Shown here piece after piece: positions 37,279 to 38,741 of a DNA stretch of 43,566 nt (its first letter is position 1; each line of letters starts with the position of its first letter). The stretch comes from an uncultured Cytophagales bacterium. GTDB lineage: Bacteria; Bacteroidota; Bacteroidia; Cytophagales; Bernardetiaceae. The notes under the pieces were generated by a model. It ran no database searches. It was not told where the DNA came from and saw only the letters and a program-made list of their open reading frames with translations. Made by a program: the position numbers and the translations under genes. The stretch spans positions 1 to 43,566 of the forward strand of contig CAZIAQ010000002.1 of NCBI GenBank assembly GCA_964537755.1. Direction: 5' to 3'.

Positions 37279-38065
37279 GCGATACCCGAGTAGGGATTTC
37301 TTTGCGTCCCAGGGTGCGTAGCATACGGGCTAAAGCATCGGTTTGTCCCGTGCTACCAAAACGATGTTGCGTTACTTCTTGGGGAGCTATCGCGTATCTC
37401 CAACGGCGGGCCACCTGACGAGCCACTGCCTCGGCTGGCTCCACAACCACGACCCCAGCAGGCAGCAACTCCTCCAGAGCCGGTATCAGAAAGGGATAAT
37501 GCGTACAGCCCAGTACCAGATGGTCGATCCTGTCCGAGAGCATGGGGGCTAGGTATTGCGCCAACAAAGCCATCGTTTGTGGGGTCTGGATATGACCAGC
37601 TTCTACACACTCCACCAGCCCATGCCCAATGCAGCTATGCACCGTTACGTGTTCAGCAAATCGGGCTTTGGTTTCCCGAAAAAGCCGGCCGTTGAGCGTG
37701 CCAGCCGTGGCCAGCAGTCCGATATGTCCCGTTTGGGTTTGAAGGACGGCAGGCTTAAGGGCCGGCTCCATACCCACGATGGGCATACGCCCCCCCCAAA
37801 TGTGCCGAAGCGTACCGATAGCAGCGGCGGTAGCGGTATTGCAGGCCACCACCAACAAACGGCAGCCCTGCCCGTAAAGGTATCTGGCAATAGCCAGACT
37901 GCGCTCGGCGATGCGTTCGGGGGACTTATCCCCGTAAGGGCAATACGCCTGATCGGCTAGATAGATCGTTGGCACCTCGGGCAGAAGCCGCTCAATGGCC
38001 CGCCATACGGACAGCCCTCCTACGCCCGAATCAAAGACCCCAATACAAGGGCGATGCTCATTCAT
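37253..38065 (-). CDS. murI: Glutamate racemase
   Basis: 270 aa with IGVFDSGVGGLSV (first catalytic Cys region), ACNTA and the second catalytic motif (GCTHYP). Its 3' end overlaps the convergent HK gene by 26 nt. Confidence 0.9.
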   Translation of the reverse strand: MNEHRPCIGVFDSGVGGLSVWRAIERLLPEVPTIYLADQAYCPYGDKSPERIAERSLAIARYLYGQGCRLLVVACNTATAAAIGTLRHIWGGRMPIVGMEPALKPAVLQTQTGHIGLLATAGTLNGRLFRETKARFAEHVTVHSCIGHGLVECVEAGHIQTPQTMALLAQYLAPMLSDRIDHLVLGCTHYPFLIPALEELLPAGVVVVEPAEAVARQVARRWRYAIAPQEVTQHRFGSTGQTDALARMLRTLGRKEIPTRVSLTRDGSAR

Positions 38066-38741
38066 AGAAGACCGCGATCTGGTCTAGGGGTTTTCGTTTG
38101 ATTTTCGGAACATAAACCTCCTCGGCAGGATAGCCTACGGGCAAGAGCAAAAACGGGCGTTCGTTGTGCGGGCGGTCCAGGACATCGGCCAAAAAACCCA
38201 TCGGGCTAGGCGTATGCGTAACCGTAACCAGCCCCGCATGATGGATCGCCTGGATGAGCATCCCGCAGGCCAGTCCTACCGATTCACTGACGTAGTAATT
38301 GTTGCGGCGTTGGGTGCCTTCCATCTCGAAGTTTCGCCGAAAAACCACGATGAGATAGGGGGCAATCTCCAGGAAGGGTTTTTCCCAGGAGGTACCGATG
38401 GGACGCAAGTCGTCGAGCCAGGTATCGGGCATCCGTTGTTGGTAGTTTTTGCGCTCTTCTTCTTCGGCGGCGGCCCGAATGCGGGCTTTGTAAGCCGGAT
38501 CAGCGACGACACAAAATGTCCAGGGTTGGCGGTTGGCACCCGAAGGAGCCGTAGAGGCCGTCAGGAGGATGTTTTCGATGACCGCACGCGGGATGGGTTT
38601 ATCCGAAAAAGTCCTGACGGTGCGGCGTTGATTTGCCTGATAATAAAAATCCTCCGTGCGCTGAATCATCTCCTCGGGGGTGTAAGTCTTAGCCGTATAG
38701 CGTTCGTGGGGATAGCCATCTATCCAGAGATCGGTTTCCAT
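38058..38741 (-). CDS. Nitroreductase-superfamily flavoprotein closely resembling iodotyrosine deiodinase (IYD, halotyrosine dehalogenase)
   Basis: 227 aa. The blocks are [106 protein letters not shown] and [28 protein letters not shown]. By recollection they align nearly block for block with human IYD, including the Glu/Tyr/Lys lid residues. An 8-nt overlap with the murI start. Confidence 0.7.
   Translation of the reverse strand: [227 protein letters not shown]

Follow-up and report, generated by a model that had tools for sequence, protein, structure and literature searches.

Iodotyrosine deiodinases (IYDs) form a subgroup of the nitroreductase superfamily that is already characterized both structurally and biochemically, and one bacterial ortholog that has been crystallized is more than 60% identical to the protein described here. 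Mouse, human, Drosophila, and Thermotoga IYDs dehalogenate iodo-, bromo-, and chlorotyrosine in vitro (PMC11126969), and bacterial IYDs are active on halotyrosines (PMC8668982). Two marks distinguish the subgroup (PMC8668982). An extension called E1 folds into an active-site lid in which a Glu and a Lys, both universally conserved, and a Tyr, which is highly conserved, bind the halotyrosine through its zwitterion; in addition, a Thr nears N5 of the flavin mononucleotide (FMN) upon lid closure and stabilizes the semiquinone, leading to the one-electron chemistry needed for dehalogenation. The function of IYD outside chordates was unknown until bromotyrosine was identified as the substrate in Drosophila (PMC11126969), and the ways in which bacteria come into contact with halotyrosines are described as unstudied (PMC8668982). 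An IYD homolog of Zobellia has been mentioned in the literature, at the level of annotation, as part of halogen metabolism.

Here we describe an IYD-like gene in DNA from an uncultured Cytophagales bacterium of the Bernardetiaceae (GenBank assembly GCA_964537755.1, contig CAZIAQ010000002.1, positions 1 to 43,566 of the forward strand); this whole stretch of 43,566 nucleotides (nt) is referred to below as the window. The gene encodes a protein of 227 amino acids (aa) and overlaps the start of murI, the gene for glutamate racemase. Taken as a whole, our reading, in which we have high confidence, is that the product would be a cytoplasmic, homodimeric, FMN-dependent IYD, orthologous to the enzyme of Haliscomenobacter hydrossis (HhIYD), that uses the IYD mechanism to clear halotyrosines and that came to lie next to murI by accident.

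Identity and active site of the 227-residue protein

The open reading frame (ORF) was assigned from its translation, its Pfam and Protein Data Bank (PDB) matches, and a structure model.
38058-38741, minus strand: predicted IYD ortholog, 227 aa, ATG start (ORF; PF00881; phmmer against the PDB; AlphaFold2 and Foldseek)

PF00881 (nitroreductase) was the only Pfam family found on the protein (E value of 1.1e-21; 78.1 bits against a cutoff of 23.5), and both this match and superposition of the model on IYD crystal structures indicated the alpha+beta FMN-binding core of the nitroreductases. When all PDB chains were searched with phmmer, the best match was HhIYD (5ko7 and also 5ko8 and 5krd; 2.7e-84, 285.6 bits), with human IYD (4ttb; 8.1e-60, 205.5 bits), mouse IYD (3gb5; 7.1e-57), and Thermotoga IYD (6pz0; 2.9e-25) also recovered. 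The best six sequence matches were all IYDs, after which scores fell from 92 to 60 bits at the next subgroup. Pairwise identity was 60.7% to HhIYD, over 211 aligned residues, and 47.6% to human IYD. The bit scores place the IYD match far beyond chance. Entry 5KO8 is identified as HhIYD with bound iodotyrosine (PMC8668982), and Foldseek labels 5ko7, 5ko8, and 5krd alike as H. hydrossis IYD. By sequence, we assign the protein to the IYD subgroup of the nitroreductase superfamily as an IYD ortholog, and we predict that it is a soluble, FMN-dependent reductive dehalogenase of halotyrosines with a short N-terminal extension and without a membrane anchor.

An identical protein has been deposited as [quoted passage not shown] (MAG, metagenome-assembled genome), and several of the homologs in our list are already named iodotyrosine deiodinase by JGI. 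The deposited name can safely become iodotyrosine deiodinase/halotyrosine dehalogenase ortholog. Beyond correct annotation the locus matters little, and it does not advance understanding of the role of bacterial IYDs.

An AlphaFold2 model of the protein, built without FMN on an alignment of 43 sequences, had a mean predicted local distance difference test score of 90.8 and a predicted template modeling (TM) score of 0.86, with no low-confidence segments. The closest PDB structure was 5ko8_B, the iodotyrosine-bound, lid-closed form of HhIYD (TM scores of 0.90 and 0.94; root mean square deviation of 1.7 Å), and Foldseek ranks 1 to 25 were occupied entirely by IYD entries. From 0.72 for IYDs, the TM score dropped to 0.65 or less for other nitroreductase-fold proteins. 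The model also has a beta-hairpin, at residues 138 to 147, in the position of the E2 loop; since this loop is present, the protein belongs to the ordinary mesophile type of IYD and not to the trimmed thermophile type.

The crystallized chain of HhIYD (PDB 5KO7, 5KO8, and 5KRD) has 228 residues, both proteins have a short N-terminal extension and no anchor, and they have in common the lid triad, the FMN N5 Thr, the Trp/Tyr stacking pair, and the E2 loop. Both enzymes are from Bacteroidota. The E2 loop of the window protein is shorter by 2 to 3 residues, and the two sources differ in order and family: Haliscomenobacter is placed in the Saprospiraceae, whereas the window comes from a Cytophagales MAG of the Bernardetiaceae. 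The human and mouse enzymes (IYD/DEHAL1; 4TTB/4TTC and 3GB5/3GFD) superimpose on the model with TM scores of 0.87 to 0.88, and the residues that contact substrate and FMN are all kept across the catalytic domain, for which the identity to human IYD given above was obtained. In mammalian IYD, however, a long N-terminal extension bears a membrane anchor, which the window protein lacks, and the enzyme serves in iodide salvage in the thyroid, whereas the bacterial host has no known need for iodide. The minimal IYD of Thermotoga neapolitana (TnIYD; 6PZ0) shares the triad and the lid mechanism (PMC8668982) but is without the N-terminal extension and the entire E2 loop, both of which are present in the window protein.

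Residues were mapped by pairwise alignment to human IYD and HhIYD, and their codons were read directly in the DNA.
38367-38465, minus strand: E1 active-site lid region, approximately residues 93 to 125 (pairwise mapping)
38454-38456, minus strand: codon of E96, lid triad (human E157, HhIYD E91, TnIYD E68)
38442-38444, minus strand: codon of Y100, lid triad (human Y161, HhIYD Y95, TnIYD Y72)
38379-38381, minus strand: codon of K121, lid triad (human K182, HhIYD K116, TnIYD K92)
within 38367-38465, minus strand: W108, lid Trp (human W169, HhIYD W103), which stacks with Y149 between E1 and E2
38211-38213, minus strand: codon of T177, the Thr that hydrogen bonds to FMN N5 at lid closure (human T239, HhIYD T173)

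Outside this list, Y149 (human Y211) is the E1-E2 stacking partner of W108 in a pair that, like the E2 loop, characterizes mesophile IYDs without being indispensable, A69 (human A130) corresponds to the residue whose backbone hydrogen bonds to the phenolate, and R39, R40, R43, and R216 align with human R100, R101, R104, and R279, arginines that we take to bind the FMN phosphate. MAFFT was used to align 159 sequences, comprising the window protein, human IYD, HhIYD, 120 homologs from databases, and 36 fetched loci; E96, Y100, K121, T177, A69, and W108 were invariant (159/159). Y149 was kept in 158 of the 159 sequences, and the presumed FMN-phosphate arginines were invariant or nearly so, with R216 found in 154 and replaced by Lys in the other 5. 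The spacing of the triad, E-x3-Y-x20-K, is the same in the window protein and in human IYD. T177 sits in the motif VTHTP, and the chain of the human T239A mutant (5yak) differs from 4ttb exactly at the position that aligns with T177. An initial annotation, made from the window's letters and ORF translations alone, had judged that the protein fits the IYD subfamily far better than generic nitroreductases and had proposed a conserved Glu/Tyr/Lys lid triad. The four peptide blocks that it quoted were all found in the translation, and both proposals hold: HhIYD scored 285.6 bits where every non-IYD nitroreductase-fold chain in the PDB scored 59.7 bits or less, and the triad aligned with that of known IYDs and was invariant in the alignment.

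Catalysis, substrate, and possible role

The catalytic steps that we envisage for the window enzyme are drawn from its homology to IYDs that have been crystallized and assayed (PMC8668982). A 3-iodo-, 3-bromo-, or 3-chloro-L-tyrosine would bind over FMN, and E96, Y100, and K121 would grip the zwitterion of the amino acid and thereby order E1 into a helix-linker-helix lid. Closure of the lid would bring T177 to FMN N5 and stabilize the flavin semiquinone, so that reduced FMN could pass its electrons singly, with release of halide and L-tyrosine. The most likely role, which we propose tentatively, is clearance or salvage of free halotyrosines, which might originate from halogenated proteins or from environmental organohalogens and would be returned as usable tyrosine. 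Outside iodine-rich niches, the substrate is more probably bromo- or chlorotyrosine than iodotyrosine. The initial annotation had called the physiological role of bacterial IYDs unknown, and it is still undescribed in PMC8668982 and PMC11126969.

One gene neighborhood hints at such a role. In a Logan contig (SRR26630449, positions 1 to 4351; locus L047), an IYD gene at 3001-3681, whose product is 66% identical to the window protein, lies directly after the gene for an AsnC/Lrp-type regulator and is flanked by genes for homogentisate 1,2-dioxygenase (HgmA_N), a Glu/Leu/Phe/Val dehydrogenase, and a fumarylacetoacetase-family hydrolase. Such a setting would suit an enzyme whose product, dehalogenated tyrosine, passes into catabolism; it is one case and the only suggestive context that we saw.

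Several observations weigh against our reading. The tyrosine-salvage context just described is one neighborhood of about 75, and no haloperoxidase, halogenase, or tyrosine-catabolic genes were found among the 39 window ORFs scanned with Pfam. Moreover, HhIYD binds iodotyrosine more than 160-fold more weakly than does TnIYD, an enzyme similar to human IYD in this affinity (PMC8668982), and the native substrate of the bacterial enzyme may therefore not be iodotyrosine. This weak binding also lends some weight to a different view of the enzyme, namely, that it has the IYD fold and triad but that its native substrate is a different 3-substituted tyrosine or some related aromatic amino acid, or that it serves mainly as a nitroreductase; IYDs with an open lid do retain an innate nitroreductase activity (PMC8668982). 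We nevertheless regard this view as distinctly improbable. The IYD-subgroup enzymes tested to date, bacterial ones included, all prefer halotyrosines, and halotyrosine specificity has been attributed to exactly the residues that are conserved in the window protein, whose relative HhIYD, identical at three of every five aligned positions, was crystallized with iodotyrosine in a productive complex.

The overlap with murI and the remaining alternatives

The initial annotation had also reported that the IYD gene overlaps the start of murI by 8 nt and had taken this to suggest coexpression with D-glutamate supply for peptidoglycan, with a PAP2 lipid phosphatase gene just upstream on the opposite strand. 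The features concerned are as follows.
37253-38065, minus strand: murI, glutamate racemase, 270 aa (TIGR00067, PF01177, PDB matches, motifs)
38058-38065, minus strand: IYD/murI stop/start overlap, ATGAATGA, 8 nt, a layout typical of translational coupling
38771-38778, minus strand: candidate promoter element, TATATTTG, a perfect match to the -7 consensus TAnnTTTG, with its end 30 nt upstream of the start codon of the IYD gene
38800-39390, plus strand: PAP2-family phosphatase gene, divergent (PF01569, 1.2e-23)

The overlap itself is as had been stated, and the identity of murI is firm. MurI scores 192.2 bits with the NCBIfam equivalog model TIGR00067, above the cutoff of 146.65, its 23 PDB matches at an E value of ≤1e-10 are without exception glutamate racemases (best match, 3hfr; 2e-42), and it has the motif DSGVGG together with both catalytic cysteines, C75 in VVACNTAT (CNTA) and C187 in LGCTHYP (GCTH). 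A MurI-like racemase for some other substrate was considered and rejected on these same grounds. At the junction, the IYD frame reads ...GTC TTC TAT GAA TGA and the murI frame reads ATG AAT GAG CAT, so that the murI ATG falls inside the last IYD codons. At its other end, murI (37253-38065, minus strand) runs convergently into the 3′ end of a histidine kinase gene (36151-37278, plus strand), the two overlapping by 26 nt at 37253-37278, and there is no terminator-like hairpin between them.

TAnnTTTG is the -7 promoter consensus of Bacteroidota (Bacteroides). TATATTTG was its sole minus-strand match in the interval from 37200 to 38900, with none inside the IYD gene, against a background of 0.48 per kb. 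A promoter scan of the region around the locus returned no sigma-70-type promoter, terminator-like matches there occurred only at the level expected from shuffled sequence, and scans for Rfam elements and tRNAs were negative. Because the IYD gene lies immediately upstream of murI and overlaps it, the pair is probably cotranscribed and translationally coupled, with the essential murI being transcribed together with the IYD gene from a promoter upstream of the latter. The gene layout and the consensus motif make this arrangement plausible for the small clade in which it occurs.

How far the linkage extends was judged from 41 genome loci, 31 metagenome loci, and the contigs of five close homologs. 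Every locus was searched with the MurI, PAP2, nicotinate phosphoribosyltransferase, and kinase proteins of the window, and murI was sought in both flanks by tblastn (E value of ≤1e-5); the 64 informative loci were those whose IYD exceeded 45% identity to that of the window and that had at least 600 nt of downstream sequence. Only three of these had murI anywhere in the flanks. One (L043) is from the same organism as the window, and the other two have IYDs that are 76% (L042) and 72% (L001, from an uncultured Cytophagales MAG) identical to that of the window; in these relatives, MurI is about 55% identical to the window MurI, and the overlap is kept, as ATGAGTAG (8 nt) in L042 and as ATGA (4 nt) in L001. 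The 61 loci that lacked murI span Bacteroidota, Acidimicrobiia, Ignavibacteria, and others and include the next-closest relatives, with IYDs 67% (L044 and L045), 66% (L047 and Thermonema L046), and 63% (Marivirga L002) identical to that of the window. The three IYDs with murI are nearest to each other (72 to 78% mutual identity, compared with 70% or less to all others) and come from one small Cytophagales clade, and the arrangement thus represents a single evolutionary event. The overlap is restricted to that clade and gives no mechanistic lead to the function of the enzyme.

These results bear on the possibility that IYD and MurI form a functional module in which dehalogenation is coupled to D-glutamate or peptidoglycan, for example, by shielding wall synthesis from halogenated amino acids, with PAP2 belonging to the same envelope theme. 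The stop/start overlap has been kept in three organisms even though their IYDs and MurIs have diverged to the extent given above, PAP2 does lie divergently upstream in the window, and the window holds further cell wall genes (for a Mur ligase, YkuD, an M23 peptidase, and an RlpA-like protein). Those genes, however, are 15 to 37 kb away in unrelated operons, murI is missing even from the next-closest relatives, the three positive loci count as one event, PAP2 is not beside the IYD gene in L042, and a literature search found no publication on any connection between IYD and glutamate racemase. The synteny survey has largely refuted such a module, to which we give very little credence, and the proposed functional tie to murI is not supported; the check for conservation of the linkage across genomes that the initial annotation had suggested came out negative. 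As to PAP2, the divergent upstream gene was confirmed, but its adjacency did not extend to relatives: it lies beside the IYD gene only in the window and in L043, from the same organism, and is not adjacent in L042 or at other loci, the upstream flank of L001 being too short to judge. We treat PAP2 as a neighbor and assign it to no functional unit with IYD. Its ORF starts at a TTG at 38800, and the in-frame ATG at 38830 (MLDRLRAF...) is the likelier start, which would leave a divergent intergenic region of 88 nt; the protein fell below the cutoff for all NCBIfam undecaprenyl-diphosphatase and PgpB models.

A narrower possibility is that, in the small clade, murI no longer has expression signals of its own and relies on the IYD promoter and on IYD translation, with perhaps a real tie between IYD and the cell wall. 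We consider this a long shot. If it were true, IYD would be expressed constitutively at a housekeeping level, and halogenated tyrosines might interfere with D-amino acid or peptidoglycan metabolism, which would provide a first handle on the role of bacterial IYDs. Under the reading that we prefer, adjacency to murI would be a lineage-specific accident of gene order with no metabolic link to D-glutamate or peptidoglycan, and this accident would itself imply constitutive IYD expression in the small clade.

Misidentification of a BluB-type flavin destructase (BluB being 5,6-dimethylbenzimidazole synthase) or of a generic NfsA/NfsB-type nitroreductase as an IYD can be dismissed as next to impossible: although BluB TIGR02476 was the top NCBIfam match, since no IYD model was among the matches, and although NCBI annotates the identical protein only to family level, the scores were far below the cutoffs (55.4 bits against 150 for BluB, 34.3 against 227 for NfsB NF008275, and 17.6 against 223 for NfsA NF008033), BluB 2isj (15.5 bits; E value of 0.1) and Escherichia coli NfsB 1ds7 (about 15 bits; 0.15) aligned over only the N-terminal 50 to 60 residues, in contrast with the E value of 2.7e-84 for HhIYD, and the first BluB-like structure appeared at Foldseek rank 39 with a TM score of about 0.62. 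What these enzymes share with the window protein is the common PF00881 core, and their alignments never span the lid segment that bears the triad. The closer affinity to BluB or NfsB for which the initial annotation had recommended checking was therefore not seen.

Other neighborhoods, distribution, and the rest of the window

To compare neighborhoods more widely, flanking ORFs of 78 IYD loci were clustered by all-against-all blastp, and no neighbor family was found to co-occur with IYD across lineages. In Crocinitomicaceae/Flavobacteriales, fabF (KAS II) and rnc (RNase III) come after the IYD gene at 13 to 15 loci (L006 to L010, L012, L014, L016, L030, L039, L053, L064, L065, L069, and L072), and in a group that includes MAGs labeled Chitinophaga the IYD gene occurs with genes for PadR, a PspC-like membrane protein, and a biotinyl-domain protein and with sucD. 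The second-largest neighbor “cluster” consisted of an antisense shadow ORF of IYD itself in GC-rich genomes. The neighborhoods are lineage-specific, mostly housekeeping syntenies, and gene context will therefore not easily reveal the role of IYD.

The “limited number of bacteria” given in PMC11126969 greatly understates the spread of bacterial IYDs. A word-index search yielded at least 8000 scored candidates, all with E values of ≤1e-10, and among the representatives there were at least 305 clusters at 50% identity with E values of ≤1e-30, spread over Bacteroidota, Acidimicrobiia, Ignavibacteria, Gemmatimonadota, and others. IYDs 50 to 58% identical to that of the window (L013, L019, L022 to L026, L029, L031 to L036, and L038) were found in MAGs labeled Acidimicrobiia, Candidatus Microthrix, Ignavibacteria, Kapaibacterium, Gemmatimonadota, Longimicrobiaceae, Acidobacteriota, Phycisphaerae, and Proteobacteria. 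Several representatives of 370 to 445 aa that rank among the best scoring, including P0121 (422 aa), P0123 (445 aa), P0127, P0128, P0130, P0133, P0137, and P0140, match the query in two or three stretches and apparently contain tandem-duplicated or fused IYD domains.

The window is an ordinary Bacteroidota chromosome segment of a Bernardetiaceae MAG, with no sign of a mobile element anywhere in it. Pfam scans, which covered 39 ORFs, identified genes for SHMT, LepA, TruA, a Mur ligase, an M17 aminopeptidase, SSB, and MutY, as well as fatty acid oxidation genes, a transaldolase-family gene, and genes for a GltD-like oxidoreductase, nicotinate phosphoribosyltransferase, a glycosyltransferase, and a DegT aminotransferase. 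The kinase gene that converges on murI encodes a hybrid response-regulator histidine kinase and precedes murI, the IYD gene, and the PAP2 gene in the window. Two ORFs, at 6959-7609 (plus strand; 216 aa) and 29121-29801 (minus strand; 226 aa), matched no Pfam family at an E value of ≤0.001. In the 831-aa ORF at 31494-33989 (plus strand), the first 180 or so residues match PIG-L de-N-acetylase (4.9e-18), and nothing in Pfam matched the other 650 or so at an E value of ≤1e-4. The genes nqrA, -B, -C, -D, and -E, for the Na+-translocating NADH:quinone reductase, are contiguous at 11014-16710 (minus strand), with no nqrF after nqrE; the next gene downstream of nqrE encodes a 287-aa sigma-70 factor and is followed by a GNAT and carbon-nitrogen hydrolase fusion (9400-11013).

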